Assembly: GCA_964447315.1 (NCBI GenBank)
Contig: CAYURQ010000001.1
Span: 27,351-91,350, forward strand
Reading direction: 5' to 3'
Length of the DNA stretch: 64,000 nt
DNA from: Candidatus Woesearchaeota archaeon
Lineage (GTDB): Archaea; Nanobdellota; Nanobdellia; Pacearchaeales; GW2011-AR1
The notes beneath the pieces were generated by a model, which searched no databases, was not told the DNA's origin, and saw only the letters and a list, made by a program, of their open reading frames with translations. Each line of letters begins with the position of its first letter. The first letter of the stretch is position 1. A program made the translations under genes and the position numbers. Positions 26,551-46,689 of this stretch are shown here, in pieces.

Positions 26551-26596
26551 AATAGTCTCAAATGGATTGTGTTTTATAAGTATTGTTGTCTAGTGA

Positions 26597-27004
26597 TTAT
26601 TTCTTTTTATTTTTTCTTTTCTTTAAAATTAGTAATAAAATACAAATAACTATTATTCCTAATATTGTTAAAAAACTATTCATTAAGTTTATTGCCAAAC
26701 CAATTAAATTCAAGTAAAATACAACTAATGGAACAATTGCAATACTTAGTCCAAAGCTTAAAGCAATTCTTTCAAGCCAGTTTATAGTTCCTTTTTTATT
26801 GTCTTCATTTTTGGTTGTTTCAAGGAAAAAAACATAACTTAGTATAAATCCTGGAAGGAATAAAACATAAACACTTCCAAATACAATTCTGAAACTTGTT
26901 GATAATTCAATCATGCTGAACATTGCAATAGCTAAACTAATAAAAGCAAGAATAAAAACAACTCCTCCTGCACTCCAGAACCATTTTTTAATATCTTTAT
27001 TCAT
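26597..27004 (-). CDS. small polytopic membrane protein (135 aa; the track ORF was trimmed to Met130)
   Basis: Starts 'MNKDIKKWFW'. Hydrophobic segments and a basic tail 'KKRKNKKK'. The longer form overlaps the real divergent gene at 27057. Confidence 0.5.
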   Translation of the reverse strand: MNKDIKKWFWSAGGVVFILAFISLAIAMFSMIELSTSFRIVFGSVYVLFLPGFILSYVFFLETTKNEDNKKGTINWLERIALSFGLSIAIVPLVVFYLNLIGLAINLMNSFLTILGIIVICILLLILKKRKNKKK

Positions 27005-27056
27005 AAATATAAGTAGGTGAAAATATTTATAAACATTATGATATAATTTATTTGTT

Positions 27057-27740: not shown

Positions 27741-27800
27741 AAATAGCAAAGCGTATTTTTTTAAATTATATATTAGAATATTTCATATAAAACTAATGTT

Positions 27801-27827: not shown

Positions 27828-27910
27828 ATAAAGAAAAGTTTATATAATATTAGAACATTAAAATATAGAGGTGATGGAACCTCAAGATTCCCAATTCTTG
27901 AAAAAATACT

Positions 27911-29068: not shown

Positions 29069-29368
29069 ATGAAACTTGAACAAATGACTGGAGAAATTTC
29101 ACAAGCATCTCAAGGAAGGAGCAAATACTTCGTGGTTGGAGATTTAAGTTACTTGTCTGGATCTCATTTATATATGGCTGATGAACTATATATAAAGAAT
29201 TTTAGAGATGGAAGTATACTCCACATTCATGAAGTAGATGGTAGAATCACTGGTGCTAATATTAGGGGCACTAATGATTTAAGAGGGACTCCAATTAGCA
29301 ACTATCAAGCAACAATGTTAGATGTCTTGCCTGGAAGCTCTAGAACAATCATAAAAAACGGATCATAA
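29069..29368 (+). CDS. hypothetical protein (99 aa), translationally coupled
   Basis: The ATG directly abuts the upstream stop. No motif. Confidence 0.45.
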   Translation: MKLEQMTGEISQASQGRSKYFVVGDLSYLSGSHLYMADELYIKNFRDGSILHIHEVDGRITGANIRGTNDLRGTPISNYQATMLDVLPGSSRTIIKNGS

Positions 29369-29369
29369 A

Positions 29370-29612
29370 ATGGTTTCAGAAAAGCAGATTAAGCACGAGC
29401 TTATAGCCATATATTCTAATTATCTTTCCAGTAAAGAGGATAAAAAGAATAGAGAAAAAGGGTATAAGCTTTATACAAAGTATTTCAATGGTGCAGAAAC
29501 TCTTTTTAGAGAAAATGTGAGTACTGCAATTTGGCAAGCCTTTAATCTGTACGAAGGCAAACTAAAAGAATCCAATGCAAAAAAGATTCTTGAAGATCTT
29601 CGCAAGACTTAA
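29370..29612 (+). CDS. hypothetical protein (80 aa), translationally coupled
   Basis: ATG 1 nt after the upstream stop. No motif. Confidence 0.45.
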   Translation: MVSEKQIKHELIAIYSNYLSSKEDKKNREKGYKLYTKYFNGAETLFRENVSTAIWQAFNLYEGKLKESNAKKILEDLRKT

Positions 29613-29661
29613 TTTTTATTTTATTTTTTATTTTTAGATAATAAAATTCATATTTAGAAAA

Positions 29662-30147
29662 ATGAAAAAACAAGAAATACTAGAAGAACTTAAAAAACAA
29701 TTTGAATTAACAAAGAAAAAACTTAATTTCAAAGCTAGTTATGATGAAATAAATAACATGTCCTATATTGAGGATATGGCTTTAAGCCAGGGTTTTGTTA
29801 GTAACCAATTCCCAAGGCAGATGATTAACAGAATTGTTGAAACCTTTTATGGATGGGTTGGAGAGATTTATTCCTGGATTTATACCCCGCAAATGGACCT
29901 TATTCATGGGCATGAGGGAAAAAGACTTTCTGAACAAGAAAAAAAAGAATTACTTAATATGATTGATAGAATTATGTATTTAGTTAGAAAAAATAAAAGA
30001 ATTGCTTTTCAAGGTTTAATTGAAAAACAAGAAGGAGAATTTGTTGATGAATTAGTTGAATTTGATAAAAAATACTTTAATCCTTTTATGTTAAAATATC
30101 ATAAAAAATTTGAGAATATCTGGAAACAAGAAATAGATAAAAATTAA
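29662..30147 (+). CDS. hypothetical protein (161 aa)
   Basis: Intact ORF after a T-rich 49-nt gap. No motif. Confidence 0.4.
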   Translation: MKKQEILEELKKQFELTKKKLNFKASYDEINNMSYIEDMALSQGFVSNQFPRQMINRIVETFYGWVGEIYSWIYTPQMDLIHGHEGKRLSEQEKKELLNMIDRIMYLVRKNKRIAFQGLIEKQEGEFVDELVEFDKKYFNPFMLKYHKKFENIWKQEIDKN

Positions 30148-30158
30148 ATATTTTTCAA

Positions 30159-30467
30159 TTAATAAGGTATCTTTTCACCTTCCCTAGAGCAATGCGTGCA
30201 ATTGCCTTCAAGACCACATTCTCCTCCAGAAAGCCTTAATCCTTGTCCAGGAGCATTATAATTTCCTTGATAATATCTACATCTTGGTTCAATAAGAAAT
30301 TCTTGCCATCCTCCTGAAGATCCAAGAGTGCTACGTCTAGATACTTTCATTCCCCCTCGAACTTCAACATCTTTTTCTTTAGAAGTGCAAGTGAATGGAT
30401 GATCATACTTTTCTCTTAAATTTTCCATTACTTCTTTAAGAACTGAATTTGAATATTCATAACTCAT
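30159..30467 (-). CDS. Cys-rich small protein, paralogue B (102 aa; start moved to 'MSYEYS')
   Basis: It shares 'KYDHPF.C', 'VRG.M.V', 'F.IEP.C.YY.G.Y' and a terminal 'C....C..C' with the upstream gene. Trimming removes the overlap with 30475..30783. Confidence 0.55.
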   Translation of the reverse strand: MSYEYSNSVLKEVMENLREKYDHPFTCTSKEKDVEVRGGMKVSRRSTLGSSGGWQEFLIEPRCRYYQGNYNAPGQGLRLSGGECGLEGNCTHCSREGEKIPY

Positions 30468-30474
30468 TTTTAAA

Positions 30475-30783
30475 TTATACATTTCCTCCATCTGTTTCAC
30501 AGGCTCTGCAAACACTTTTTCCTGGTTTTCCACAAATTCCAGTGTCTCCTCCTGTATATCCTCCCCTATAATAACTACATTTTGGTTCAATAAAGAATTT
30601 TTGATATCCGCTATTACTAGGAGCTGATCCAGGATACCACCTAACAGTCATCCCTCTAACCCGCACCCCTATCTCCTGCGCTTTTTTACTCCCTCCCTTT
30701 GCAAGAATATTTAGATACCCACAAATAAACGGATGATCATATTTTTTTTCCAGATCCTTTTTTATTTCATTAACATCTGACAT
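30475..30783 (-). CDS. Cys-rich small protein, paralogue A (102 aa)
   Basis: Same conserved blocks as paralogue B. Visibly higher G+C than the surroundings. Confidence 0.55.
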   Translation of the reverse strand: MSDVNEIKKDLEKKYDHPFICGYLNILAKGGSKKAQEIGVRVRGMTVRWYPGSAPSNSGYQKFFIEPKCSYYRGGYTGGDTGICGKPGKSVCRACETDGGNV

Positions 30784-30901
30784 TAAAAAATAATGCTCTT
30801 AATATTTAAATAAATTATTGTACTGAAAAATACTCTTCCTCTAAAACAGTAAACTAAGTAAAACAGATAATACTTCTGTAAAAGACGAAAGATTTAAATA
30901 G

Positions 30902-30919
30902 TAATATCAATTGATATTA
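30902..30919. promoter_or_regulatory. perfect 18-bp palindrome 'taatatcaattgatatta' between TATA box and start of 30940
   Basis: It lies between the TATA-like 'gaaagatttaaatag' (30889-30903) and 'aggag'/ATG 30940. The core 'atcaattgat' recurs at 59555-59566 in front of the paralogous gene. Confidence 0.55.
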
Positions 30920-30939
30920 TCATAAAAATAGGAGTTAAA

Positions 30940-31218
30940 ATGCCATTATTACAAAAAAGAAATCCAAATGCAAGGTCACCAACATTACAAACAGTATTGA
31001 TGGTTGAAAAATTCATTGAAGAAAATAGTGGAGAGTATAAAAAAACAGAATTGTTCAAAAAACTTCCTAGAAAAGTAATGTGGCAAACATTTCAAATAAT
31101 AGTGCAATATCTTGAAGAAAATTATAAAATAATTATTGGAAAGGATGGAATAGTAACCTACATATGGAATCCAAATTTCTATGAAAAAATTAAAGATAGG
31201 CCAGAGATAAAAATATGA
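30940..31218 (+). CDS. small winged-helix-like DNA-binding protein, putative antitoxin
   Basis: 92 aa, paralogous to 59574..59861 ('SPTL.TV.MVE..I.ENSGE.KKT......LP.K.MW.T......YL.E.....I..DG...YIWNP'). It overlaps the downstream toxin-like gene by 4 nt. Confidence 0.45.
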   Translation: MPLLQKRNPNARSPTLQTVLMVEKFIEENSGEYKKTELFKKLPRKVMWQTFQIIVQYLEENYKIIIGKDGIVTYIWNPNFYEKIKDRPEIKI

Positions 31219-31535
31219 AATCAAAGGTTGTTTTTGTTGATAATAGCCTAGAAAAAGCGTTTAATTCTCTTGATGAATCAGACCCTATTAAAAAAGCATT
31301 AATTAGGGCAATAAAAAATATTCAACAAGATCCAAAAGCTGGAAGGAGTGTTATAAAAAGAATGATTCCAGAGAGACTAATTAAGAAATATGGGATAAAT
31401 AACTTGATGATTTACAATTTGCCAAATGCATGGAGAATGTTATATTCAGTAACTACTTCTGGAGATATAGAATTGGTGGCTGTAATACTTGATTGGATGA
31501 ATCACAAGGACTATGAGAGATTATTCAAGTTTTAA
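31215..31535 (+). CDS. RelE/ParE-superfamily toxin-like protein
   Basis: '...NLPNAWRMLYSV....IELVAVILDWMNHKDYERLF' fits the RelE/ParE C-terminal pattern. ATGA overlap with the upstream small gene. Confidence 0.5.
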   Translation: MKSKVVFVDNSLEKAFNSLDESDPIKKALIRAIKNIQQDPKAGRSVIKRMIPERLIKKYGINNLMIYNLPNAWRMLYSVTTSGDIELVAVILDWMNHKDYERLFKF

Positions 31536-31832
31536 TTATTCTTCATCTTCCTCAAGAACTAGTAAACTAAGTAAAACAATTAATACTCCTGCTATTATAG
31601 AAATTACCCAGCTTAGCCAACCTAACTCTAGAGTCTTAAACTTAATTATTAAAAAACCTGCAATACCAAGCAATCCTATGAATATATAATCTTTTCGTAT
31701 TTTTTCTTTGATAATTGGGGCGTGTTCTGAAAATACATCAAGAATTCCAGTAACAATTACAACAACCAATAATATATTTAAGTTAAGATAAGTGCTAACA
31801 AGTCCTGCCCATATTTGTTCAATCAATAACAA
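31536..31832 (-). CDS. small membrane protein, 'LGW' family copy 1 (98 aa; TTG start as tracked)
   Basis: Three hydrophobic segments and an acidic tail. Paralogues at 33542, 36225, 38237 and the C-terminal half of 44150..44632. Confidence 0.55.
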   Translation of the reverse strand: MLLIEQIWAGLVSTYLNLNILLVVVIVTGILDVFSEHAPIIKEKIRKDYIFIGLLGIAGFLIIKFKTLELGWLSWVISIIAGVLIVLLSLLVLEEDEE

Positions 31833-31903
31833 TATTAGATAAGTTACTAAGACTGTTTGAAAGATGTGATTTACTAGGGATGCGTTGTGTCTGTGGAAAA
31901 GGG

Positions 31904-31917
31904 AAAAGTTTATAGAA
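31904..31917 (+). promoter_or_regulatory. BRE/TATA-like promoter of 31938 (leaderless geometry)
   Basis: 'aaaagtttatagaa' centred 26 nt before ATG 31938. Duplicate at 36599-36612. Confidence 0.5.
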
Positions 31918-31937
31918 TTTTAAATTATTATTAAAAC

Positions 31938-32324
31938 ATGGAAGAAAGAGATGTAATAATTAAGATTTATGATAAAAAAGAAGAAATTAATAAAATAATT
32001 AAAGAATTAAAAAAATATTCATTTGAAGATTACATTAAAACTGGCCATTATGAAATTTCTTTATTAACTAAAGGAACAGATGAAGATAAATTGAGAGAGA
32101 TTTATCCTAAATTTGATATTATAGAATTAATAGCATTGAGGAGGCATAAAAATGGTTATGAGAATTATGATGTTTATTATGAACTTGAAAAAGGAAATTA
32201 TGCTTTGTTTGCCATAAATCTAGAAGGTAAAAAACCTAAAATAGATAATGCATTTATAGCTAATAGAATATTCAAAAATTTCTTAAAATCTATGGTAAAA
32301 AGATATGGTAATAAAATGGTTTAA
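31938..32324 (+). CDS. hypothetical protein (128 aa), possibly toxin-like
   Basis: No firm motif, only a loose resemblance to small RNase-fold toxins. Convergent with the DUF2283-like gene, overlapping it by 4 nt. Confidence 0.4.
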   Translation: MEERDVIIKIYDKKEEINKIIKELKKYSFEDYIKTGHYEISLLTKGTDEDKLREIYPKFDIIELIALRRHKNGYENYDVYYELEKGNYALFAINLEGKKPKIDNAFIANRIFKNFLKSMVKRYGNKMV

Positions 32325-32656
32325 TTAGTCATGCATTGCATAGGTATATTTGCTATAGGAATTTGTTTTATTCCTGCTTTTTCATCTTCTAATCCCACCC
32401 CAATAAATAATTGATCTCTGCTTGGTTTTACAATAAGATTTAATTTTTCAAAGTCTTTTATTTGTTGTATATTAAACCCTATTGCCTCAAGAAAATTAGA
32501 AAACTCTCTTACTTCTAAACTAACTACTTTTCCGTTTCCAGTAGTGCTAATAATAAAATCTCCAAAGCTAAAATTCTTCTTAACTTTCTCATTATCTTGA
32601 ATAGAAGCCACAATTAAGCTGTCTGTATTCTCATCATATTTAGAGACTTTTATCAT
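32321..32656 (-). CDS. DUF2283-like small protein
   Basis: N-terminal 'MIKVSKYDENTDSLIVAS' fits the DUF2283 'YD.e.D.lyi' pattern. Confidence 0.45.
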   Translation of the reverse strand: MIKVSKYDENTDSLIVASIQDNEKVKKNFSFGDFIISTTGNGKVVSLEVREFSNFLEAIGFNIQQIKDFEKLNLIVKPSRDQLFIGVGLEDEKAGIKQIPIANIPMQCMTN

Positions 32657-32756
32657 ATTTTATAATAATATTTTGTTTATTTATACCTTTCTATTCATCT
32701 TCTAGAGGCAAGTAAAACATATAAATCTTAATAAATAATTAAAACTCCTTTTCTTA

Positions 32757-33545
32757 ATGGGAATTGATTCATCTGAAGCAAATCAAATAATAAACGCTAT
32801 TGATTTTGTAAATCATCATTATGGAGGTTCTGCAAAAGTTACTGGAGAATTCTTTTGTAAAGACTGTAATGAGAAATTTCCTTCTGGAGAATTTCGTTAT
32901 GATAAAGGAGGGTATATTCCAGGGCCAGGTTTAATTAATTTGTCTTCTGAAAGGGCTGCATTTCCCCTTCATGAGTTTCATACTGTTCTTGCTTTAAAAG
33001 ATTCTGATGAGATCTATGAAAAAAGAGTGATTTTAGACTTATTTAATAAATCAAGAAACTGGAATTTTTATGATGTTCCAGAAAGATGCTTTGAGGATTA
33101 TATGAAAATAATGAAAACAAGCTCACTAATTTCTATTGCTAGTCTAGAAGCTAATCATTGGTGTTATTCACTTCATTCAACACCAGATTTTACAGAAGAA
33201 GAAATGCTGGAGGATCCTATTAAAAGGGATATTCTAGAAATGGATAGGAAGATTAATCTTAGGCCAAATAAATTAGAAAATGAGGTTAAACCAGAAATAA
33301 ATCGGGTTTTCAAAGACATAATTGGTAATAGAGAAATTCCAATAATTTATATTATTCCAGAAGAATTTAGAGGAGATTTTGGAGAGGAATATTATAAAAG
33401 GGATTTTATTGAAGCAACATACAATACTTTTAAAGCAAAGAACATACTTTTTCCAGATGAAAAAAGAAATTCTGTTATTAAAATAATTGATTCTTACTTT
33501 AAAGAAGCAGAATTAAAGCATGAAAGACACCCTTCTCCTTTTTAG
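32757..33545 (+). CDS. hypothetical protein (262 aa)
   Basis: Intact ORF with a single 'CKDC' pair and no recognisable domain. Confidence 0.45.
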   Translation: MGIDSSEANQIINAIDFVNHHYGGSAKVTGEFFCKDCNEKFPSGEFRYDKGGYIPGPGLINLSSERAAFPLHEFHTVLALKDSDEIYEKRVILDLFNKSRNWNFYDVPERCFEDYMKIMKTSSLISIASLEANHWCYSLHSTPDFTEEEMLEDPIKRDILEMDRKINLRPNKLENEVKPEINRVFKDIIGNREIPIIYIIPEEFRGDFGEEYYKRDFIEATYNTFKAKNILFPDEKRNSVIKIIDSYFKEAELKHERHPSPF

Positions 33546-33844
33546 GATTCTTCATCCTCTTCTAAAACAAGTAAACTAAGTAAAACAATTAATACTCCTG
33601 CAACAAGAGATATTACCCATGACAACCATCCTAATTCTAGTGTTTTAAACTTGATTATCAGGAAACCTGCAATACCAAGCAATCCTATAAATATGTAATC
33701 TTTAGGTTTTATTTTTTCTTTAATAATTGGAGCGTGTTCTGAAAATACATCAAGAATTCCAGTAACAATTACAACAACTAATAAGATATTTAAGTTAAGA
33801 TAAGTGCTAACAAGTCCTGCCCATATTTGCTCAATTAATAACAA
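33542..33844 (-). CDS. small membrane protein, 'LGW' family copy 2 (100 aa)
   Basis: About 90% identical by eye to 31536..31832. Confidence 0.55.
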   Translation of the reverse strand: MLLIEQIWAGLVSTYLNLNILLVVVIVTGILDVFSEHAPIIKEKIKPKDYIFIGLLGIAGFLIIKFKTLELGWLSWVISLVAGVLIVLLSLLVLEEDEES

Positions 33845-33913
33845 TATTAGATAAGTTACTAAGACTGTTTGAAAGGTGTGATTTACTAGGGATGTGTTGT
33901 GTCCACGGAATAG

Positions 33914-33952
33914 GAGGTGTTGGAGTGAGGGTTTGGGAATGTTGATAGGATT
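33914..33952 (+). repeat. G-rich element, subfamily 2
   Basis: 'gaggtgttggagtgagggtttgggaatgttgataggatt' aligns with 58345-58389 and 59480-59524. Confidence 0.5.
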
Positions 33953-33960
33953 ATTTTAAT

Positions 33961-34602
33961 TTATATAGAAGAATTAATATCTCCATGCACTACTAATGAT
34001 TGATAATTTTCAAATAAGAAAGGGGCATAAAATTGGGCTTCTGGAAAATCTTTAGTTGTACTTAGATACCAAATATTCTCTTCCATTTTATCTTTAGCTC
34101 TTTCAACTGACTTTTCTATAGTAGAACCTTCTATTAATGCTTTAACAAGGATATTTGAGGGTTCTAAAAATAATTTTGCTATTTTATCTCTTCTTGGAGA
34201 TGCCTCCTGATTAGGATCTTTCCCAAGATTAAAATCTCTCTCATATCCAATAAAACAAATGGCTCCTTTAGTAACTATTATCTTCCCTAGTTTTTGTCCT
34301 GATGAACAAGTTAGGGAATAAACAACCATGCCTGAAAGAACTTTTGCATTTTCTTTAGAGATTATTATCTCATTTTTATGCCCAGCAATCAAATCAGGAT
34401 TACCATGCCCATTAAACATAATAAAATCTGGTTTTTGCTTTTTTATAATTTTTAAGATTTCTTTTTTATTTGCTTTTTCTCTTTCCCTATTTATTGTTTT
34501 GTTTCCTCTTTCTTTCGAATATTTAACTAATTCTTTACTATAATAATATAAATAAGAGAGGGTCCCATCATGCTCGGGTCTGGAAAAAATAATATTACTC
34601 AT
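33961..34602 (-). CDS. minimal CHAT/caspase-like (clan CD) cysteine peptidase candidate (213 aa)
   Basis: Strand+His-Gly 'DFIMFNGHG' (His66) and strand+Cys 'VVYSLTCSSG' (Cys99), followed by 'KGAICFIGY', in the order and spacing typical of caspase-fold enzymes. Confidence 0.4.
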   Translation of the reverse strand: MSNIIFSRPEHDGTLSYLYYYSKELVKYSKERGNKTINREREKANKKEILKIIKKQKPDFIMFNGHGNPDLIAGHKNEIIISKENAKVLSGMVVYSLTCSSGQKLGKIIVTKGAICFIGYERDFNLGKDPNQEASPRRDKIAKLFLEPSNILVKALIEGSTIEKSVERAKDKMEENIWYLSTTKDFPEAQFYAPFLFENYQSLVVHGDINSSI

Positions 34603-34604
34603 AA

Positions 34605-34841
34605 TTATTGTTTTACTAAAAAACCTCTTTTGAAAGCTTTAAGATAGTTTAATTGGATTTCAACTATTCTATTTCCAATATCTGTATTATCTTCTATGTT
34701 TTTTATCAACTCATCTCTTTTCATAAATTTTCCATCAGACATTCCAAATGAAACACTTACATTTGGGGAAGCCTGCCTAATTCTTTCTATGACTATTTCT
34801 TTCTTTAACTGATCTATATTCTCTTGTTTATTTTCTTTCAT
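34605..34841 (-). CDS. hypothetical protein (78 aa), middle gene of the operon
   Basis: 2-nt gap to the downstream gene and a 4-nt overlap with the upstream gene. Confidence 0.45.
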   Translation of the reverse strand: MKENKQENIDQLKKEIVIERIRQASPNVSVSFGMSDGKFMKRDELIKNIEDNTDIGNRIVEIQLNYLKAFKRGFLVKQ

Positions 34842-35020
34842 ATTATTTCTAACTCTTTTAGTATTTTTAATATTTTCTCTCCATTTTCTGTCTTATTCTT
34901 TATTTCTTGGTAAGCAAGATTCCAACTTATTGGATTTTTATCTATAATTACTATTGTATTGTTTCTTTCTTTTATAGGCACTCCAGAATAAACTTTAAAG
35001 AAATCTTCTTCATTTACCAT
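34838..35020 (-). CDS. hypothetical protein (60 aa), first gene of the operon
   Basis: Intact ORF coupled to the next gene. Confidence 0.4.
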   Translation of the reverse strand: MVNEEDFFKVYSGVPIKERNNTIVIIDKNPISWNLAYQEIKNKTENGEKILKILKELEII

Positions 35021-35054
35021 TATTAAATTAGTAAATTAATCTTTTTAATTTTTG

Positions 35055-35165
35055 TCATTTCTTTTTCCTCGGCTTATTCCAATAAGGACTTTGGGGTTTC
35101 ATGAAACACTGAAGAGAAAAGGATATTTAAATGCTGTTTTTTGGAGTGTGGGTAAAACAATTCAT
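35055..35165 (-). pseudogene. decayed copy of the small zinc-ribbon gene (compare 46276..46413)
   Basis: It reads 'MNCFTHTPKNSI*ISFSLQCFMKPQSPYWNKPRKKK*'. The tail matches '...CPKCKSPYWNKPKKK' of the intact gene. It has an in-frame TAA and has lost Cys ligands. Confidence 0.55.
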
Positions 35166-35203
35166 CTTAATCTATATATTTTTTAATTAATGATTCTATA
35201 ATT

Positions 35204-35464
35204 TTAATTATACACTTTATCTCTTTTATCAATTTTTACTATCAAAATTATTTTCTGAGCTTCTTTAATTTTATATAATGCTCTAAAGTACCCAATTCTA
35301 TACCTAAAAACCATCTCATTATTATCTCTCCCAATAAACTTTGAATCACTTGGTACAGGAGTATTTTCAAGGTTTTTTAATCTCTTTTCAATCCTTTCTC
35401 TTTCTTTGGTATCTAATTTGTTTAAAAAATCCTGGGCTTTAACAGACAGCTCTACAGAATACAT
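35204..35464 (-). CDS. relE: RelE-family toxin (archaeal type)
   Basis: '...FRYRIGYFRALYKI.....I.IVKI.KRDKVY' is the archaeal RelE pattern. Confidence 0.7.
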   Translation of the reverse strand: MYSVELSVKAQDFLNKLDTKERERIEKRLKNLENTPVPSDSKFIGRDNNEMVFRYRIGYFRALYKIKEAQKIILIVKIDKRDKVYN

Positions 35465-35465
35465 T

Positions 35466-35627
35466 TTACAGTCTCTTTGTTCTGCCTTCTTTTAAATCTT
35501 CTTCAGCTTGATTTAAAGAGTTTATGTCGTCTTGGGTTAGAGTTACATCTATTATGTGCTCCTTTAAAGAATCCATATCTTTTTTTAAATTGTCTAGTTT
35601 ACTTATGATTAATTCTTCGTTTTCCAT
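35466..35627 (-). CDS. relB: RelB-like antitoxin (53 aa, absent from the ORF track)
   Basis: My translation is 'MENEELIISKLDNLKKDMDSLKEHIIDVTLTQDDINSLNQAEEDLKEGRTKRL'. Its stop is 1 nt before the relE ATG. Confidence 0.6.
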   Translation of the reverse strand: MENEELIISKLDNLKKDMDSLKEHIIDVTLTQDDINSLNQAEEDLKEGRTKRL

Positions 35628-35665
35628 ATCTTCCAATATAAAAATAACTATATAATCTTTTCGTA

Positions 35666-35715
35666 TTTTTTATTTTTCATAAGGGGTGTTGGTTGGAGCA
35701 TTTTAGGGAGTATTG
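35666..35715 (+). repeat. G-rich element, subfamily 1 (3'-end remnant of a paralogue of gene 46504)
   Basis: In frame it reads '...FVFFIFHKGCWLEHFREYCKLKKKK*', versus '...FFIFHRGCWLEHFREYYQLNKKK*' in the intact gene. There is no start codon upstream. Confidence 0.6.
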
Positions 35716-35781
35716 TAAATTAAAAAAAAAGAAATAATTAGCAGAACAATCAAAAAAAATTAGAAAAGATATGGAAAGAAT

Positions 35782-36189
35782 CTACAAAATTTCTTTTAAA
35801 TAATTAGATAAATTTAAATCCCTAATTTCTTGTTTTCTTAACCATTTATAATCTTCATGTTCTTTACTTAACTTAACATTCTCTGGTTTTTCATGAGTTT
35901 TTAATATATATATTATTCTTAAAAGATGAACTTTTTTCCCTTGTTTCTCATATTCTTTACTTAATATTCTATAGATTGAAACTATTTCTGTATCGAGACT
36001 TGTTTCTTCCTTAACTTCTCTAAGTACAGCTTCAGAAGGATCTTCTCCAAATTCAACTCTTCCTCCAGGAATTTCCCATTCTCGAGAACCATCTACTTCT
36101 TTTGAATTTCTTTTAAGAAAAAGAAACTTATCTTGTATCTGAATCAATCCATTTGCTAAAATATTTGTTTTTTTCTTAATTTCTGACAT
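35782..36189 (-). CDS. Nudix hydrolase
   Basis: Nudix box 'GGRVEFGEDPSEAVLREVKEETSL'. It lies in the 543-bp unique spacer between the two 4.15-kb repeat copies. Confidence 0.85.
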   Translation of the reverse strand: MSEIKKKTNILANGLIQIQDKFLFLKRNSKEVDGSREWEIPGGRVEFGEDPSEAVLREVKEETSLDTEIVSIYRILSKEYEKQGKKVHLLRIIYILKTHEKPENVKLSKEHEDYKWLRKQEIRDLNLSNYLKEIL

Positions 36190-36224
36190 GTTTTAATAAA
36201 AGAATACATTTTATTTAAGGTTTT

Positions 36225-36527
36225 CTAATCTTGTTGTTCACCTTCTTCTAAAACAAGCAAACTAAGTAAAACAATTAATACTCCTGCTATTATAGAAATT
36301 ACCCAGCTTAGCCAACCTAACTCTAGAGTCTTAAACTTAATTATTAAAAAACCTGCAATACCAAGCAATCCTATGAATATATAATCTTTTCGTATTTTTT
36401 CTTTGATAATTGGGGCGTGTTCTGAAAATACATCAAGAATTCCAGTAACAATTACAACAACCAATAATATATTTAAGTTAAGATAAGTGCTAACAAGTCC
36501 TGCCCATATTTGTTCAATCAATAACAA
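36225..36527 (-). CDS. small membrane protein, 'LGW' family copy 3 (100 aa)
   Basis: Same as 31536..31832 except for the C-terminal tail ('LEEGEQQD' versus 'LEEDEE'). The repeat boundary falls in its 3' end. Confidence 0.55.
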   Translation of the reverse strand: MLLIEQIWAGLVSTYLNLNILLVVVIVTGILDVFSEHAPIIKEKIRKDYIFIGLLGIAGFLIIKFKTLELGWLSWVISIIAGVLIVLLSLLVLEEGEQQD

Positions 36528-36632
36528 TATTAGATAAGTTACTAAGACTGTTTGAAAGATGTGATTTACTAGGGATGCGTTGTGTCTGTGGAAAAGGGAA
36601 AAGTTTATAGAATTTTAAATTATTATTAAAAC

Positions 36633-37019
36633 ATGGAAGAAAGAGATGTAATAATTAAGATTTATGATAAAAAAGAAGAAATTAATAAAATAATTAAAGA
36701 ATTAAAAAAATATTCATTTGAAGATTACATTAAAACTGGCCATTATGAAATTTCTTTATTAACTAAAGGAACAGATGAAGATAAATTGAGAGAGATTTAT
36801 CCTAAATTTGATATTATAGAATTAATAGCATTGAGGAGGCATAAAAATGGTTATGAGAATTATGATGTTTATTATGAACTTGAAAAAGGAAATTATGCTT
36901 TGTTTGCCATAAATCTAGAAGGTAAAAAACCTAAAATAGATAATGCATTTATAGCTAATAGAATATTCAAAAATTTCTTAAAATCTATGGTAAAAAGATA
37001 TGGTAATAAAATGGTTTAA
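36633..37019 (+). CDS. hypothetical protein (128 aa), duplicate of 31938..32324
   Basis: Identical translation. Confidence 0.4.
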   Translation: MEERDVIIKIYDKKEEINKIIKELKKYSFEDYIKTGHYEISLLTKGTDEDKLREIYPKFDIIELIALRRHKNGYENYDVYYELEKGNYALFAINLEGKKPKIDNAFIANRIFKNFLKSMVKRYGNKMV

Positions 37020-37351
37020 TTAGTCATGCATTGCATAGGTATATTTGCTATAGGAATTTGTTTTATTCCTGCTTTTTCATCTTCTAATCCCACCCCAATA
37101 AATAATTGATCTCTGCTTGGTTTTACAATAAGATTTAATTTTTCAAAGTCTTTTATTTGTTGTATATTAAACCCTATTGCCTCAAGAAAATTAGAAAACT
37201 CTCTTACTTCTAAACTAACTACTTTTCCGTTTCCAGTAGTGCTAATAATAAAATCTCCAAAGCTAAAATTCTTCTTAACTTTCTCATTATCTTGAATAGA
37301 AGCCACAATTAAGCTGTCTGTATTCTCATCATATTTAGAGACTTTTATCAT
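37016..37351 (-). CDS. DUF2283-like small protein, duplicate of 32321..32656
   Basis: Identical translation. Confidence 0.45.
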   Translation of the reverse strand: MIKVSKYDENTDSLIVASIQDNEKVKKNFSFGDFIISTTGNGKVVSLEVREFSNFLEAIGFNIQQIKDFEKLNLIVKPSRDQLFIGVGLEDEKAGIKQIPIANIPMQCMTN

Positions 37352-37451
37352 ATTTTATAATAATATTTTGTTTATTTATACCTTTCTATTCATCTTCTAG
37401 AGGCAAGTAAAACATATAAATCTTAATAAATAATTAAAACTCCTTTTCTTA

Positions 37452-38240
37452 ATGGGAATTGATTCATCTGAAGCAAATCAAATAATAAACGCTATTGATT
37501 TTGTAAATCATCATTATGGAGGTTCTGCAAAAGTTACTGGAGAATTCTTTTGTAAAGACTGTAATGAGAAATTTCCTTCTGGAGAATTTCGTTATGATAA
37601 AGGAGGGTATATTCCAGGGCCAGGTTTAATTAATTTGTCTTCTGAAAGGGCTGCATTTCCCCTTCATGAGTTTCATACTGTTCTTGCTTTAAAAGATTCT
37701 GATGAGATCTATGAAAAAAGAGTGATTTTAGACTTATTTAATAAATCAAGAAACTGGAATTTTTATGATGTTCCAGAAAGATGCTTTGAGGATTATATGA
37801 AAATAATGAAAACAAGCTCACTAATTTCTATTGCTAGTCTAGAAGCTAATCATTGGTGTTATTCACTTCATTCAACACCAGATTTTACAGAAGAAGAAAT
37901 GCTGGAGGATCCTATTAAAAGGGATATTCTAGAAATGGATAGGAAGATTAATCTTAGGCCAAATAAATTAGAAAATGAGGTTAAACCAGAAATAAATCGG
38001 GTTTTCAAAGACATAATTGGTAATAGAGAAATTCCAATAATTTATATTATTCCAGAAGAATTTAGAGGAGATTTTGGAGAGGAATATTATAAAAGGGATT
38101 TTATTGAAGCAACATACAATACTTTTAAAGCAAAGAACATACTTTTTCCAGATGAAAAAAGAAATTCTGTTATTAAAATAATTGATTCTTACTTTAAAGA
38201 AGCAGAATTAAAGCATGAAAGACACCCTTCTCCTTTTTAG
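37452..38240 (+). CDS. hypothetical protein (262 aa), duplicate of 32757..33545
   Basis: Identical translation. Confidence 0.45.
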   Translation: MGIDSSEANQIINAIDFVNHHYGGSAKVTGEFFCKDCNEKFPSGEFRYDKGGYIPGPGLINLSSERAAFPLHEFHTVLALKDSDEIYEKRVILDLFNKSRNWNFYDVPERCFEDYMKIMKTSSLISIASLEANHWCYSLHSTPDFTEEEMLEDPIKRDILEMDRKINLRPNKLENEVKPEINRVFKDIIGNREIPIIYIIPEEFRGDFGEEYYKRDFIEATYNTFKAKNILFPDEKRNSVIKIIDSYFKEAELKHERHPSPF

Positions 38241-38539
38241 GATTCTTCATCCTCTTCTAAAACAAGTAAACTAAGTAAAACAATTAATACTCCTGCAACA
38301 AGAGATATTACCCATGACAACCATCCTAATTCTAGTGTTTTAAACTTGATTATCAGGAAACCTGCAATACCAAGCAATCCTATAAATATGTAATCTTTAG
38401 GTTTTATTTTTTCTTTAATAATTGGAGCGTGTTCTGAAAATACATCAAGAATTCCAGTAACAATTACAACAACTAATAAGATATTTAAGTTAAGATAAGT
38501 GCTAACAAGTCCTGCCCATATTTGCTCAATTAATAACAA
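38237..38539 (-). CDS. small membrane protein, 'LGW' family copy 4
   Basis: Translation identical to 33542..33844. Confidence 0.55.
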   Translation of the reverse strand: MLLIEQIWAGLVSTYLNLNILLVVVIVTGILDVFSEHAPIIKEKIKPKDYIFIGLLGIAGFLIIKFKTLELGWLSWVISLVAGVLIVLLSLLVLEEDEES

Positions 38540-38608
38540 TATTAGATAAGTTACTAAGACTGTTTGAAAGGTGTGATTTACTAGGGATGTGTTGTGTCCA
38601 CGGAATAG

Positions 38609-38647
38609 GAGGTGTTGGAGTGAGGGTTTGGGAATGTTGATAGGATT
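38609..38647 (+). repeat. G-rich element, subfamily 2 (duplicate of 33914..33952)
   Basis: Lies within repeat copy 2. Confidence 0.5.
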
Positions 38648-38655
38648 ATTTTAAT

Positions 38656-39297
38656 TTATATAGAAGAATTAATATCTCCATGCACTACTAATGATTGATA
38701 ATTTTCAAATAAGAAAGGGGCATAAAATTGGGCTTCTGGAAAATCTTTAGTTGTACTTAGATACCAAATATTCTCTTCCATTTTATCTTTAGCTCTTTCA
38801 ACTGACTTTTCTATAGTAGAACCTTCTATTAATGCTTTAACAAGGATATTTGAGGGTTCTAAAAATAATTTTGCTATTTTATCTCTTCTTGGAGATGCCT
38901 CCTGATTAGGATCTTTCCCAAGATTAAAATCTCTCTCATATCCAATAAAACAAATGGCTCCTTTAGTAACTATTATCTTCCCTAGTTTTTGTCCTGATGA
39001 ACAAGTTAGGGAATAAACAACCATGCCTGAAAGAACTTTTGCATTTTCTTTAGAGATTATTATCTCATTTTTATGCCCAGCAATCAAATCAGGATTACCA
39101 TGCCCATTAAACATAATAAAATCTGGTTTTTGCTTTTTTATAATTTTTAAGATTTCTTTTTTATTTGCTTTTTCTCTTTCCCTATTTATTGTTTTGTTTC
39201 CTCTTTCTTTCGAATATTTAACTAATTCTTTACTATAATAATATAAATAAGAGAGGGTCCCATCATGCTCGGGTCTGGAAAAAATAATATTACTCAT
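38656..39297 (-). CDS. minimal CHAT/caspase-like peptidase candidate, duplicate of 33961..34602
   Basis: Identical translation. Confidence 0.4.
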   Translation of the reverse strand: MSNIIFSRPEHDGTLSYLYYYSKELVKYSKERGNKTINREREKANKKEILKIIKKQKPDFIMFNGHGNPDLIAGHKNEIIISKENAKVLSGMVVYSLTCSSGQKLGKIIVTKGAICFIGYERDFNLGKDPNQEASPRRDKIAKLFLEPSNILVKALIEGSTIEKSVERAKDKMEENIWYLSTTKDFPEAQFYAPFLFENYQSLVVHGDINSSI

Positions 39298-39299
39298 AA

Positions 39300-39536
39300 T
39301 TATTGTTTTACTAAAAAACCTCTTTTGAAAGCTTTAAGATAGTTTAATTGGATTTCAACTATTCTATTTCCAATATCTGTATTATCTTCTATGTTTTTTA
39401 TCAACTCATCTCTTTTCATAAATTTTCCATCAGACATTCCAAATGAAACACTTACATTTGGGGAAGCCTGCCTAATTCTTTCTATGACTATTTCTTTCTT
39501 TAACTGATCTATATTCTCTTGTTTATTTTCTTTCAT
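39300..39536 (-). CDS. hypothetical protein (78 aa), duplicate of 34605..34841
   Basis: Identical translation. Confidence 0.45.
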   Translation of the reverse strand: MKENKQENIDQLKKEIVIERIRQASPNVSVSFGMSDGKFMKRDELIKNIEDNTDIGNRIVEIQLNYLKAFKRGFLVKQ

Positions 39537-39715
39537 ATTATTTCTAACTCTTTTAGTATTTTTAATATTTTCTCTCCATTTTCTGTCTTATTCTTTATTT
39601 CTTGGTAAGCAAGATTCCAACTTATTGGATTTTTATCTATAATTACTATTGTATTGTTTCTTTCTTTTATAGGCACTCCAGAATAAACTTTAAAGAAATC
39701 TTCTTCATTTACCAT
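39533..39715 (-). CDS. hypothetical protein (60 aa), duplicate of 34838..35020
   Basis: Identical translation. Confidence 0.4.
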   Translation of the reverse strand: MVNEEDFFKVYSGVPIKERNNTIVIIDKNPISWNLAYQEIKNKTENGEKILKILKELEII

Positions 39716-39749
39716 TATTAAATTAGTAAATTAATCTTTTTAATTTTTG

Positions 39750-39860
39750 TCATTTCTTTTTCCTCGGCTTATTCCAATAAGGACTTTGGGGTTTCATGAA
39801 ACACTGAAGAGAAAAGGATATTTAAATGCTGTTTTTTGGAGTGTGGGTAAAACAATTCAT
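39750..39860 (-). pseudogene. decayed zinc-ribbon gene copy (duplicate of 35055..35165)
   Basis: Lies within repeat copy 2. Confidence 0.55.
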
Positions 39861-39898
39861 CTTAATCTATATATTTTTTAATTAATGATTCTATAATT

Positions 39899-40159
39899 TT
39901 AATTATACACTTTATCTCTTTTATCAATTTTTACTATCAAAATTATTTTCTGAGCTTCTTTAATTTTATATAATGCTCTAAAGTACCCAATTCTATACCT
40001 AAAAACCATCTCATTATTATCTCTCCCAATAAACTTTGAATCACTTGGTACAGGAGTATTTTCAAGGTTTTTTAATCTCTTTTCAATCCTTTCTCTTTCT
40101 TTGGTATCTAATTTGTTTAAAAAATCCTGGGCTTTAACAGACAGCTCTACAGAATACAT
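39899..40159 (-). CDS. relE: RelE-family toxin, duplicate of 35204..35464
   Basis: Identical translation. Confidence 0.7.
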   Translation of the reverse strand: MYSVELSVKAQDFLNKLDTKERERIEKRLKNLENTPVPSDSKFIGRDNNEMVFRYRIGYFRALYKIKEAQKIILIVKIDKRDKVYN

Positions 40160-40160
40160 T

Positions 40161-40322
40161 TTACAGTCTCTTTGTTCTGCCTTCTTTTAAATCTTCTTCA
40201 GCTTGATTTAAAGAGTTTATGTCGTCTTGGGTTAGAGTTACATCTATTATGTGCTCCTTTAAAGAATCCATATCTTTTTTTAAATTGTCTAGTTTACTTA
40301 TGATTAATTCTTCGTTTTCCAT
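40161..40322 (-). CDS. relB: RelB-like antitoxin, duplicate of 35466..35627
   Basis: Offset 4,695 bp within repeat copy 2. Confidence 0.6.
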   Translation of the reverse strand: MENEELIISKLDNLKKDMDSLKEHIIDVTLTQDDINSLNQAEEDLKEGRTKRL

Positions 40323-40360
40323 ATCTTCCAATATAAAAATAACTATATAATCTTTTCGTA

Positions 40361-40410
40361 TTTTTTATTTTTCATAAGGGGTGTTGGTTGGAGCATTTTA
40401 GGGAGTATTG
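40361..40410 (+). repeat. G-rich element, subfamily 1 (duplicate of 35666..35715; the downstream tail differs)
   Basis: After 40410 it continues 'ggggaggaagggaaaagtagataaatatt', which is homologous to the tail of the 41.5-kb copy rather than the 35.7-kb copy. Confidence 0.6.
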
Positions 40411-40591
40411 GGGGAGGAAGGGAAAAGTAGATAAATATTCATTAAACAATAATATCACAATGAGAAAAAGTTTATATATCCCGCATTGTTTGATAAATTA
40501 TGAGAGTAAAATGGGGGGTGAATGTATTTTCTGAAAGATAGTTTTATAAATATAATTAAATCTCTCTTTTATAAAGATTTTAAGTAAAAAA

Positions 40592-40846
40592 ATGGAACAG
40601 CAATTTATGACAAATAATTCAGATAATTTGCAAGAACTCTTTGATTCTAAAAAAAATGAAGTTGTTTCTCTTTGTAAGGAAGTTGCTGAAAATGAATTTG
40701 ACTTATTTGAATTTAATCTTTTCTTAGCTTCTATGGGGAAGAAAAAATTAGATGAATCTACTAAGAAAGTAAGAGAACTTAGAAAGAAAGTAGATAAAGG
40801 AAAGATTGATTTAACAAAAGACGAAGATATGTTGGATGATTATTAA
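40592..40846 (+). CDS. hypothetical acidic protein (84 aa)
   Basis: Intact ORF, convergent with 40843..41427 (4-nt overlap). Confidence 0.35.
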   Translation: MEQQFMTNNSDNLQELFDSKKNEVVSLCKEVAENEFDLFEFNLFLASMGKKKLDESTKKVRELRKKVDKGKIDLTKDEDMLDDY

Positions 40847-41427
40847 TGCCTTTTCTTTTTATTAGAATGTTTATTTTTTGAAAAATTTCTTAACATCTTA
40901 TTTACCTCTTGTTCTGATCCAGGTTCTATAATTGTTGGTACATCCAAATCAATATTTAAATAATTACAAGGATCTTGAAAATCTCTTCTATTATTTGTTG
41001 AGATGCAATTTATTCCAGCAATACAATATACAGATATTATTCTTAAATCATTATCCCCTGCCTTCCAATTATTGTCTTTTCTTTCTGTTTTTAGTTTGTC
41101 AAAAAGTGCATTTACCTTGGCTTGATTTACATCTTTCTTTTTTATGGGTTTTATCCTATTTCTTCTTAAAAAATTAAAGATTTCTCTTTTATTTAATTCT
41201 TTATCTGGATTCTTTTTAGATAACAGATTTAATAATTCACTAAAAACAATATAATTTGTATGAAGAAAATTGCCTCTTTTTGCAATTCTAGGCCTATATC
41301 CCCAAGTTCCTTTTTCATTTTCCATCCAAGAAAAAGAGTTATCTGTATCTAAACCAATTTTTCTTAAAATTTTATTTCTTGCTACAACTCTTTCCATATG
41401 AATAACCTTCTTTTTCTTATTATCCAT
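40843..41427 (-). CDS. hypothetical protein with possible PIN-like C-terminal motif (194 aa; trimmed to 'MDNKKKK')
   Basis: 'DNDLRIISVYCIAGINCISTNNRRDF' resembles the PIN 'D..I.A.A...G..L.T.D.DF' end. The tracked N-terminal 61 aa merely reads through the G-rich element. Confidence 0.3.
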   Translation of the reverse strand: MDNKKKKVIHMERVVARNKILRKIGLDTDNSFSWMENEKGTWGYRPRIAKRGNFLHTNYIVFSELLNLLSKKNPDKELNKREIFNFLRRNRIKPIKKKDVNQAKVNALFDKLKTERKDNNWKAGDNDLRIISVYCIAGINCISTNNRRDFQDPCNYLNIDLDVPTIIEPGSEQEVNKMLRNFSKNKHSNKKKRH

Positions 41428-41467
41428 TATTTGTTTAATCAAACTAAATTTAAAAATATATAGCAAG

Positions 41468-41514
41468 ATTAAAGAATTTTTTATTTTCCATAGGGGGTGT
41501 TGGTTGGAGCATTT
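41468..41514 (+). repeat. 47-nt exact direct repeat (left copy), G-rich element subfamily 1
   Basis: 'attaaagaattttttattttccatagggggtgttggttggagcattt' is identical to 46609..46655. It is followed by 'gggaaaagtagataaatg', which acts as BRE/TATA for 41576. Confidence 0.85.
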
Positions 41515-41575
41515 GGGGGAGTGTTTGGAGGGAGAGAGGGAAAAGTAGATAAATGTTAAAACAATCTCTTTTTTT

Positions 41576-42445
41576 ATGGAGATTGCATCAGTTATAGAAA
41601 TAGGAAGCAAGTTTTTATCCTATGTTCTTGGGTTTTCAAGCATAGAATCAAATGAGATGGTGTTATACAGAATTCTTGCAGTATTTATTCTTGGTTGGTT
41701 GTGCTTATTTGGTTTTTTAATCATAAGAAAATCAAAATCCTTAAAACATTGGAGAATTCCCCATTTAGTTAGTATTAGTGCCATAATCTTAGTAAGTTCA
41801 GTTGGATTTTTTATTAGTTATATTCTCATATTAAATTTTAATATGTTAATTATTATAACAGAAAATATAAATGAACCAATAAACTTTCTAACAGTACTCT
41901 TTTTTATGATTTTTTACATTTCATTTGGTCTTGATTCAATAAATAAAAAATTAGGGAATGGGGAAAACTCTGAAGAATTAATTCCAAAAGAGGTGGGAAT
42001 CTTTGTCTGGAGATCAATTATGCTTGGATTTGGATTGCTAGTTGTTGTATTGTCCCAATTATTTCTATTAAAATATCTAGGGAGACTTCCTTTTGACTTA
42101 AATGTTTCTCCATCTCCTCCTTGGTTTTATTTAGCTGCGTTTCTTTTCTTTTTTTTAGCTGGAATTCTCCTTTGTTATTTTTCACTTGCAAGAAAAAAAT
42201 CTACTGAATTTTTTAATAAAATGGACAAATTTATGGAAAATAATCTTAGAGTGCCATTCATTTTTATGTTTGTTATTTTCATAATAATATTAATAGATAA
42301 AATAATAAGAAAAGATTCTGATAATTTAATACGTTCAGCTTTTATAAGCGCAGTTTTCTTAGTTATTTCTATTTTTATTAAAAAAATAAATAAGTGGGTA
42401 GTAGATTTTTTGAAAAATCTGGGTACTTTGGAAAAGAAAAAGTAA
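41576..42445 (+). CDS. polytopic membrane protein (289 aa)
   Basis: Multiple hydrophobic segments. The TATA-like box at 41545-41555 is 26 nt before the ATG. Confidence 0.55.
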   Translation: MEIASVIEIGSKFLSYVLGFSSIESNEMVLYRILAVFILGWLCLFGFLIIRKSKSLKHWRIPHLVSISAIILVSSVGFFISYILILNFNMLIIITENINEPINFLTVLFFMIFYISFGLDSINKKLGNGENSEELIPKEVGIFVWRSIMLGFGLLVVVLSQLFLLKYLGRLPFDLNVSPSPPWFYLAAFLFFFLAGILLCYFSLARKKSTEFFNKMDKFMENNLRVPFIFMFVIFIIILIDKIIRKDSDNLIRSAFISAVFLVISIFIKKINKWVVDFLKNLGTLEKKK

Positions 42446-46503: not shown

Positions 46504-46689
46504 ATGAGTAACTACAAACCCAAAACAAGATATTGTTCTAAGTGCCTTCAGAGTATAGATGAAACCAAAGATGATTATGTTATGTTAATTAGTAAAACAG
46601 GGCAAAAAATTAAAGAATTTTTTATTTTCCATAGGGGGTGTTGGTTGGAGCATTTTAGGGAGTATTATCAATTAAACAAAAAGAAATAA
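46504..46689 (+). CDS. small zinc-finger-like protein (61 aa) whose 3' end is the G-rich repeat
   Basis: 'CSKC'...'HRGC' ligand pairs. The TATA-like 'aaatttataaact' (46468-46480) is about 26-30 nt before the ATG. The 3' third equals repeat subfamily 1. Confidence 0.5.
   Translation: MSNYKPKTRYCSKCLQSIDETKDDYVMLISKTGQKIKEFFIFHRGCWLEHFREYYQLNKKK
46609..46655 (+). repeat. 47-nt exact direct repeat (right copy), inside CDS 46504..46689
   Basis: Identical to 41468..41514. It encodes 'IKEFFIFHRGCWLEH'. Confidence 0.85.

Follow-up and report, generated by a model that had tools for sequence, protein, structure and literature searches.

How does a stretch of archaeal DNA come to carry more than 4 kb of sequence twice, without a single difference between the copies? 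The question is raised by a locus in a 64,000-nucleotide (nt) stretch of contig CAYURQ010000001.1 (assembly GCA_964447315.1, Candidatus Woesearchaeota archaeon), which was analysed at its full length and is called here the window. Two copies of a 4,152-bp sequence lie in it in direct orientation, separated by a unique spacer of 543 bp. Their ends fall inside two families of dispersed homologous sequence, those of a membrane-protein gene, which we call M, and of a small Cys/His-rich gene, which we call Z. Our analysis indicates that the repeat is probably a very recent segmental duplication, produced by homologous recombination between dispersed M and Z homologies and with no enzyme from a mobile element.

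Extent and ends of the perfect repeat

A base-by-base comparison at an offset of 4,695 bp revealed a single unbroken run of identity, with 0 mismatches, that starts at 31564/36259 and stops at 35715/40410. An earlier interpretation of this DNA, made from its letters and translations (the sequence-only reading), had described a direct repeat of this length and offset without visible divergence and had set its ends by eye; the repeat proved exact to the base, with the same ends. Likewise, the eight pairs of open reading frames (ORFs) that it had listed with identical translations are identical because their DNA is. In the self-BLAST that it had proposed as a count of mismatches, the alignment reaches 28 nt further leftwards (31536-35715 versus 36231-40410, 99.81% of 4,180), and all eight mismatches are confined to those 28 nt, which are the tail of an M gene. 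Rightwards of 35715/40410 the two sequences are unrelated, and nothing aligns. A perfect repeat of 4 kb cannot have originated by chance. Its base composition is that of its surroundings, and it contains about ten small accessory genes, each of them present twice; whereas the two copies are identical throughout, the M paralogues that each of them holds differ at 12% of positions.

The left end lies in M. This gene belongs to a strongly conserved family that has no Pfam assignment and includes more than 150 database proteins with 62–87% identity, mostly of 121–139 amino acids (aa); in the window, M ORFs of 98–100 aa lie at 31536, 33542, 36225 and 38237. Two of them are in each copy of the repeat, Ma and Mb in the first and Mc and Mb' in the second. 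The bipartite structure that had been ascribed to each copy is thus borne out, the two internal membrane-protein genes being 88% identical over ca. 376 nt. Codon differences between Ma and Mb are 24 synonymous and 12 non-synonymous, with 8 of the latter in the first 18 codons; as their divergence is mostly synonymous, they diverged as functional genes before being placed side by side. At the boundary, which is 28 nt from the Ma stop codon, identity drops from 100% on the right to 71% in the adjoining 28 nt (8/28 mismatches). These 28 nt still encode an M C-terminus, and the tails differ as had been noticed, with ...LEEDEE in one copy and ...LEEGEQQD in the other.

The right end lies in what had been taken for a G-rich element. 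A 21-mer from it, GGGGTGTTGGTTGGAGCATTT, occurs 4 times in the window, versus 0 expected, and on the plus strand the element is coding sequence, namely the 3' end of Z. The intact Z gene is found at the right edge of the accessory island that contains the repeat, directly upstream of a flippase gene, and has one database homologue (P0125, 68% identity), with which it shares 23 identical codons and from which it differs by 11 synonymous and 16 non-synonymous ones. We consider Z a genuine gene because it is an intact ORF, it has this homologue and 11 of the codon differences are synonymous. Three start-less 3' fragments of Z, at 35.7, 40.4 and 41.5 kb (G1, G2 and G3; Table 1), encode …FFIFH(K/R)GCWLEH…, and the boundary at 35715 falls inside G1. 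Beyond this point, G1 retains the stop codon and the downstream flank of Z (35665-35739 versus 46617-46691, 93% over 75 nt), whereas G2 takes, past 40410, a flank of the G3 type (40360-40439 versus 41476-41557, 86.6%); the downstream flank of G3 (…GGAGGGAGAGAGGGAAAAGTAGATAAAT) differs from that of Z. Judged by these flanks, G2 is a chimera between G1 and a G3-type sequence, with its junction at 40410. On their left sides, G1 and G2 are fused to 46 nt from the central loop of M, with 22 consecutive identical bases.

Two other identities for the G-rich element were considered and rejected. As a non-coding element, a small RNA or an att site, it retrieved nothing from Rfam, and its plus strand is a conserved protein C-terminus. 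As the minus-strand 5' end of M, its alignment to the 5' region of Mb scored a z of about 2.4 above shuffled sequences, and this identity is also disfavoured by a relative that bears Z and has no M there.

Further Z-like sequence occurs in the window. Two strongly diverged 3' fragments are found, one at 27800-27850 (…FFILHKGVLE*) and one at 33905-33940, after Mb (…NRRCWSEGL…; Z-like stretch 33909-33935). Both are followed by a BRE/TATA-like motif, GAAAAGTTTATA or TTTATATAG, and Z-derived sequence seems to travel with a promoter-like stretch. In addition, a 255-aa ORF with a TTG start (40843-41610, minus strand) overlaps G3; for this PIN-like gene, the ATG at 41427 is the more probable start (194 aa) and would leave G3 intergenic.

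The four M copies share another peculiarity. Their frame is open for 28 codons upstream of the TTG selected by the ORF finder, and these codons encode the conserved N-terminus of the family (…LFHRHNASLVNHIFQTVLVTYL…). In all four copies this upstream part is devoid of ATG, GTG or TTG, so that the sole canonical start is the TTG 28 codons in, and a start there would cut most of the first transmembrane helix. These start-less copies may use non-canonical starts (ATA/ATT), may encode proteins truncated at the N-terminus or may be pseudogenes.

Table 1. Features of the repeat and of the surrounding island (window coordinates; aa, amino acids).
Feature	Coordinates	Strand	Description or basis
Repeat copy 1	31564..35715	.	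4,152 bp, 0 mismatches versus 36259-40410
Repeat copy 2	36259..40410	.	Base-by-base comparison and self-BLAST
Unique spacer S, 543 bp	35716..36258		Natural 3' flank of the Z fragment, Nudix gene and divergent 28-nt Mc tail
Ma	31536..31916	-	nhmmer E=1e-113; frame open 127 codons
Mb, second M paralogue in copy 1	33542..33928	-	88% nt identity to Ma
Mc	36225..36611	-	Body from repeat copy 2; last 28 nt (tail ...EEGEQQD) its own
Mb', Mb duplicate in copy 2	38237..38623	-	Repeat identity and nhmmer
Orphan M 3' fragment	30834..30888	-	nhmmer profile positions 348-403, E=0.023; BLASTN 85% over 54 nt
M central-loop fragments	35633-35686 and 40328-40382		Two short pieces
Diverged M paralogue, 160 aa	44150..44632	-	ca. 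35% identity; intact ATG
Z, intact, 61 aa, Cys/His-rich (CxxC…HxxC…H)	46504..46689	+	ORF MSNYKPKTRYCSKCLQSIDETKDDYVMLISKTGQKIKEFFIFHRGCWLEHFREYYQLNKKK
G1, start-less Z 3' fragment (…FFIFHKGCWLEHFREYCKLKKKK*)	35648..35737	+	tblastn E=1.5e-7
G2, chimeric Z fragment (GGGGAGGAAGGGAAAAGTAGATAAAT)	40343..40440	+	Equals G1 to 40410, then G3-type flank
G3, start-less Z 3' fragment (SKIKEFFIFHRGCWLEH…)	41462..41548	+	tblastn E=1e-8
Nudix hydrolase gene, 135 aa	35782..36189	-	PF00293, E=1e-17
Cargo A	31938..33545		128 aa (+), 111 aa (-), 262 aa (+); function unknown
Cargo B	33961..35636	-	Caspase/CHAT-like 213 aa, 78 aa, 60 aa, ParE/RelE toxin 86 aa, putative antitoxin 56 aa
Caspase/CHAT-like 213-aa protein	33961-34602, copy 38656-39297	-	AlphaFold2 (AF2), predicted local distance difference test (pLDDT) 97.9
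Left flank	30940..31535	+	92-aa gene and 106-aa weakly ParE-like gene
DUF1616 gene	26600..27007	-	PF07760; left island edge; native downstream neighbour of M in relatives

Probable origin of the repeat

Both ends of the repeat lie in M or Z homology and, therefore, the endpoints are crossover points inside sequences that both sites already possessed. The sudden loss of identity within an M tail and a Z fragment is the signature of homologous recombination between dispersed paralogous segments. The island is punctuated by copies and fragments of M, on the minus strand, and of Z, on the plus strand, and its ancestral order would have been L-Ma-A-Mb-B-G1-Nudix-Mc-X-G2-R, where L and R are the outer flanks, A and B the cargo genes of Table 1, G1 and G2 the Z fragments and X other cargo or none. 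A non-reciprocal transfer would then have copied Ma-A-Mb-B-G1 into the neighbouring slot, exchanges having occurred close to the M 3' end and within the Z fragment, and the segment X between Mc and G2 would have been overwritten. Gene conversion or a double crossover could each have achieved this, and so, equivalently, could unequal exchange in M with a subsequent deletion between Z fragments. We infer the ancestral arrangement, the direction of the transfer and the position of both copies on one chromosome. The presence here of four M copies plus fragments, versus a single M in relatives, offers abundant substrates for ectopic recombination, and gene conversion is efficient and well documented in archaea (PMC8223754, PMC11276520). 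Independent short-read contigs of SRR7048221, described below, also speak for this origin, as they agree exactly with the sequence inside the repeat and end at M and Z homologies. Among the options contemplated by the sequence-only reading, segmental duplication and gene conversion, which are variants of one process, are thus favoured by the location of the ends inside M and Z homologies, and nothing supports an unrecognised, dedicated copy-paste mechanism.

Several observations weigh against this origin. A single unequal crossover, whether between two M genes or between two Z fragments, would have duplicated the Nudix spacer too, which is not observed; it is therefore insufficient, and the structure demands either two exchanges or a single conversion tract that spans at least 4.15 kb. 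We found no relative with the proposed ancestral arrangement in three public collections, where the closest M homologues are at most 87% identical, and exact-pattern scans with the 21-mer of the G-rich element gave 0 matches in GTDB genomes and 0 in JGI metagenomes, collections from which the source genome and its close kin are absent. The copy number, the junctions and the identity of the two copies are those given by the assembled sequence. Moreover, records of the exact Nudix protein are limited to the 104-kb NCBI contig and do not include the Logan assembly of SRR7048221, which also favours another explanation for the repeat.

This explanation is an assembly artefact, which we deem unlikely. 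Denoting the repeated unit as C and the spacer as S, slightly differing copies could have been collapsed to one consensus written twice, or a tangled repeat graph could have been misresolved as L-C-S-C-R; the second version presumes a (co-)assembled metagenome with strain variants. De Bruijn assemblers traverse a simple loop once and collapse near-identical bubbles. The source is apparently an uncultured metagenome-assembled genome, whose proteins are confined to a single NCBI contig of 104,207 bp and a set of short Logan contigs. Two of the latter, from SRR7048221, match repeat-internal sequence exactly (L001 = 31834-33563; L002 = 33846-35712), and these short-read contigs break exactly at the M and Z homologies. 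A third one (L011, window 25979-31863) runs unbroken through the left boundary, with Mb alleles at its last two variable positions. L011 is thus a chimera of Ma and Mb, which shows that the paralogues confuse assemblers and that their bubbles were popped; therefore, the Logan contigs cannot settle copy number and were discarded as evidence on it. Conversely, graph logic speaks against a pure artefact: if S is bordered by the end of C on one side and by its start on the other, any linear genome with S has C on both sides. The junctions of S also make biological sense, because the M tail is in frame with the body of the gene and the Z fragment runs into the natural stop and flank of Z, and a random mis-join would not yield such junctions. 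It is possible that the tandem form is present in only part of the population.

The same graph would result if C and S formed a 4,695-bp circle beside a chromosome with the structure L-C-R, the tandem being either the Campbell-type product of a single crossover or a free circle merged by the assembly. Indeed, one crossover anywhere in C between this circle and L-C-R gives exactly L-C-S-C-R, a tandem and a circle plus chromosome are indistinguishable in an assembly graph, and interconversion with a circle is to be expected of perfect direct repeats 4 kb long. The unit also carries a ParE toxin-antitoxin pair, a typical plasmid-maintenance module. We nevertheless find this origin improbable, because Pfam and PHROGs reveal in C plus S no gene for replication initiation, integration or partition, and its composition is that of the chromosome; its 262-aa protein, whose structure model was unusable (pLDDT 40), might still be a novel Rep protein. 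In addition, homologues of its genes are found in the chromosomal M neighbourhoods of relatives and not in viral or plasmid-like contexts, and the divergent Mc tail and the Z flank in S resemble resident island sequence.

The involvement of dedicated machinery was evaluated by scanning the ORFs of the repeat, and most other island ORFs, against Pfam, NCBIfam and PHROGs. These scans detected no transposase, integrase or other recombinase; the ORFs scanned from 22 to 61 kb yielded no recombinase domain, those of the IntI type included, and Pfam and PHROGs gave no integrase gene inside the repeat unit. The window contains neither tRNA genes (ARAGORN) nor Rfam families. Repeat scans identified no terminal inverted repeats at the ends of the copies, whose flanks are homologous gene sequence and not duplicated target sites, and a short-range scan for attC-like palindromes gave nothing but weak AT-rich pairs, none of them recurring as an element at the boundaries. 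The domain and repeat scans thus agree with the sequence-only reading, which had seen no transposase, integrase or terminal inverted repeats.

Against this background, a dedicated site-specific cassette system, either integron-like or an integrative element targeting M and Z, with the M tail and the Z 3' fragment as sites, appears highly improbable. It would explain why gene fragments of similar extent punctuate the array, with the three clear Z 3' fragments beginning within ca. 20 nt of one another (35666, 40361, 41462), and why an M 3' fragment stands alone and the cargo is small and of toxin-antitoxin or defence-like type, as in chromosomal integrons; some relatives, too, have small modules between M and DUF1616. 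The M and Z fragments do flank cargo. However, their extents vary and their boundaries are not identical, and the Z fragments lie upstream of the intact Z, whereas classical integration at the 3' end of a gene would have left them on its other side. Moreover, there is no tyrosine or serine recombinase, transposase or Cas1-like gene among the scanned island ORFs, the repeat scans show no attC-like palindromes or terminal inverted repeats, and homology-driven exchange accounts for the endpoints without a special enzyme.

The island that holds the repeat

The window has a GC content of 27.6% and starts with genes of the archaeal core (RpoB, RpoA'/A'', aEF-2, EF-1alpha and SMC), and homologues of the genes studied here come from metagenome-assembled genomes of Nanoarchaeota, Pacearchaeota and Woesearchaeota. 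Judging from these genes, the host is a low-GC DPANN archaeon of the Nanoarchaeota type; that it is an archaeon had escaped the sequence-only reading. At 721-7474, RpoB is unsplit (1,086 aa), and RpoA' and RpoA'' are fused into one ORF of 1,163 aa; the NCBIfam models treat the latter as two separate subunits.

The repeat sits in a hypervariable accessory island of ca. 19.5 kb (ca. 27.0 to 46.5 kb), composed of small genes mostly of unknown function but including ParE-type toxins and PIN-like, Nudix and HIT genes. The island is delimited on the left by the DUF1616 gene, 58–60% identical to the DUF1616 genes that adjoin M in two relatives (L003 and L006), and its right border is a glycosylation cluster (46.7-56 kb) with a flippase, a methyltransferase, GT2, GT1 and a UDP-GlcNAc 2-epimerase. 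In relatives, M is a single-copy gene in 38/38 genome loci, and 12 metagenome loci gave one match each, at most 75% identical; we thus found no multi-M array elsewhere, and no large repeats at the loci of relatives. A trio formed by a protein of ca. 500 aa, M and DUF1616, all on one strand, is present in 32–34 of the 38 loci. Here this trio is broken, since DUF1616 is kept without an adjoining M, the M copies are 4.5–12 kb away, and the whole window contains no homologue of the ca. 500-aa protein. Because of the solitary DUF1616 and the lack of this homologue in the window, we place the island where relatives have the native segment with the ca. 500-aa gene and M, with M multiplied inside. The small membrane-protein gene of the sequence-only reading is thus a displaced and multiplied copy of a gene that relatives keep single and syntenic, which that reading had not recognised.

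Several cargo genes of the island have homologues less than 10 kb from M in relatives, such as the 128/111-aa pair of cargo A (L016 and L044). For instance, a pair homologous to the 92-aa/106-aa genes of the left flank is found near M in L017. Likewise, some relatives contain small modules between M and DUF1616, a HicAB pair in L022 and a hydrolase in L018, indicating that this locus collects accessory genes repeatedly in the clade. It is conceivable, although we give the idea only a small chance, that the island is an integrase-free, 'homology-anchored' cassette array, in which M and Z fragments would act as portable recombination anchors and modules would be captured, duplicated and reshuffled. 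Defence and toxin-antitoxin modules would then gather at a conserved cell-surface locus, and the perfect repeat, maybe interconverting with a 4,695-bp circle, would record one moment of this activity.

The genes of cargo A have no Pfam or PHROG matches, and the structure model of its 262-aa protein was unusable. In cargo B, the toxin matches ParE_toxin (E=6e-7) and has a small partner gene upstream; phrog_1213 is also matched in this cargo. The 213-aa protein, whose gene stands beside two tiny genes and the ParE toxin-antitoxin pair, is predicted by its AF2 model to be a stand-alone caspase/CHAT-like fold, with SAVED-CHAT 8tl0, gingipain RgpB, caspase-11 and Craspase TPR-CHAT as best PDB matches. 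Its family comprises more than 1,000 cluster representatives of ca. 215 aa, with no Pfam model above threshold, and a GHG…C (His/Cys) dyad is invariant in 47 homologues. In all, the cargo of the repeat is consistent with accessory or defence functions. The Nudix gene that had been assigned to the spacer was clearly recovered by its Pfam domain. To the left of copy 1, where a RelE/ParE-like toxin gene had been proposed, there is indeed a 106-aa gene (31215-31535), but its match to ParE_toxin is below threshold (E=0.019; 16 bits versus a cut-off of 23). The orphan M 3' fragment, a member of repeat family D3, lies left of the 92-aa/106-aa pair.

Other duplicated sequences were found around the island. 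The 92-aa gene (30940-31218) has a paralogue 28 kb off, at 59574-59861 (67% nt identity), which adjoins a Fic gene and a HEPN/nucleotidyltransferase pair (region 58349-60981); the toxin-antitoxin-rich accessory region therefore extends past the glycosylation cluster. Also beyond this cluster, a 281-bp direct repeat (56229-56508 versus 58025-58302, 89% identical) corresponds in position to paralogues of 128 aa (56064-56450) and 115 aa (57971-58318), both on the minus strand, which bracket an AAA_14/DUF4143 ATPase gene (56640-57914), a second case of a cargo gene bracketed by copies of a paralogue. Finally, two overlapping or adjacent Cys-rich ORFs of 143 and 102 aa (30159-30783, minus strand) have in common a 55-nt repeat with 76% identity (30257-30311 versus 30555-30609), and look like a tandem paralogue pair of unknown function.

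Significance and comparison with known systems

If real, the repeat is a clean and very young case of ectopic homologous recombination, by conversion or duplication, in a DPANN archaeon. The genomes of this group are tiny, and nearly all knowledge of how they recombine and change derives from metagenomes. A new mechanism is not indicated. As a consequence of the repeat, some ten small genes are present in double dose, among them those for a ParE toxin-antitoxin pair and a caspase/CHAT-like protease, and direct repeats of 4 kb should readily loop out a circle of 4,695 bp. The repeat is also a warning for annotation and binning pipelines, since gene counts are doubled by it and the perfect identity may have been created during assembly. 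The architecture of the island is the more interesting by-product, with start-less M copies, Z fragments at cassette borders, and a locus between a glycosylation cluster and DUF1616 where a conserved, normally single-copy M is multiplied and accessory modules (ParE, caspase/CHAT-like, Nudix, PIN) gather.

Parts of this architecture recall systems with dedicated enzymes. As in chromosomal integron arrays, small genes, mostly unknown or of toxin-antitoxin type, alternate with recurring short separators in a variable chromosomal region; but no IntI, attI or attC hairpins were found here, the separators are fragments of two protein-coding genes, and the island genes are on both strands. Truncated copies of host genes (M at 30834-30888 and the Z fragments) flank accessory DNA, as with integrative elements that duplicate part of a tRNA or protein gene at their att sites. 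Unlike with these elements, we found no integrase or tRNA, the M copies are nearly full-length instead of att-sized, and the Z fragments are on the wrong side. Campbell-type integration shares with the repeat the succession of homology, unique part and homology, in direct orientation and reversible, although the 4,695-bp unit has no recognisable replicon or integrase functions.

With flexible islands beside surface-glycosylation clusters, the island shares its position, between such a cluster and DUF1616, and the presence of other modules there in relatives; it differs from them in that the resident gene M is itself multiplied and its ca. 500-aa neighbour is absent from the window. A simple tandem duplication would not have two different repeat families at its ends, the M tail and the Z fragment, nor keep a unique spacer of 543 bp. 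The closest system is non-allelic homologous recombination, as occurs in bacteria between rrn operons, insertion sequence (IS) copies and paralogous genes and, in Haloferax, as gene conversion (PMC8223754). The DPANN host sets our case apart from the known ones; we met no DPANN example, and did not search the literature on that point. The likeness extends to the direct and identical copies, the ends in older homology, the abrupt drop of identity and the lack of a dedicated enzyme or site. The event is thus of a known kind, a duplication by homologous recombination, in an unusual host, a DPANN archaeon.

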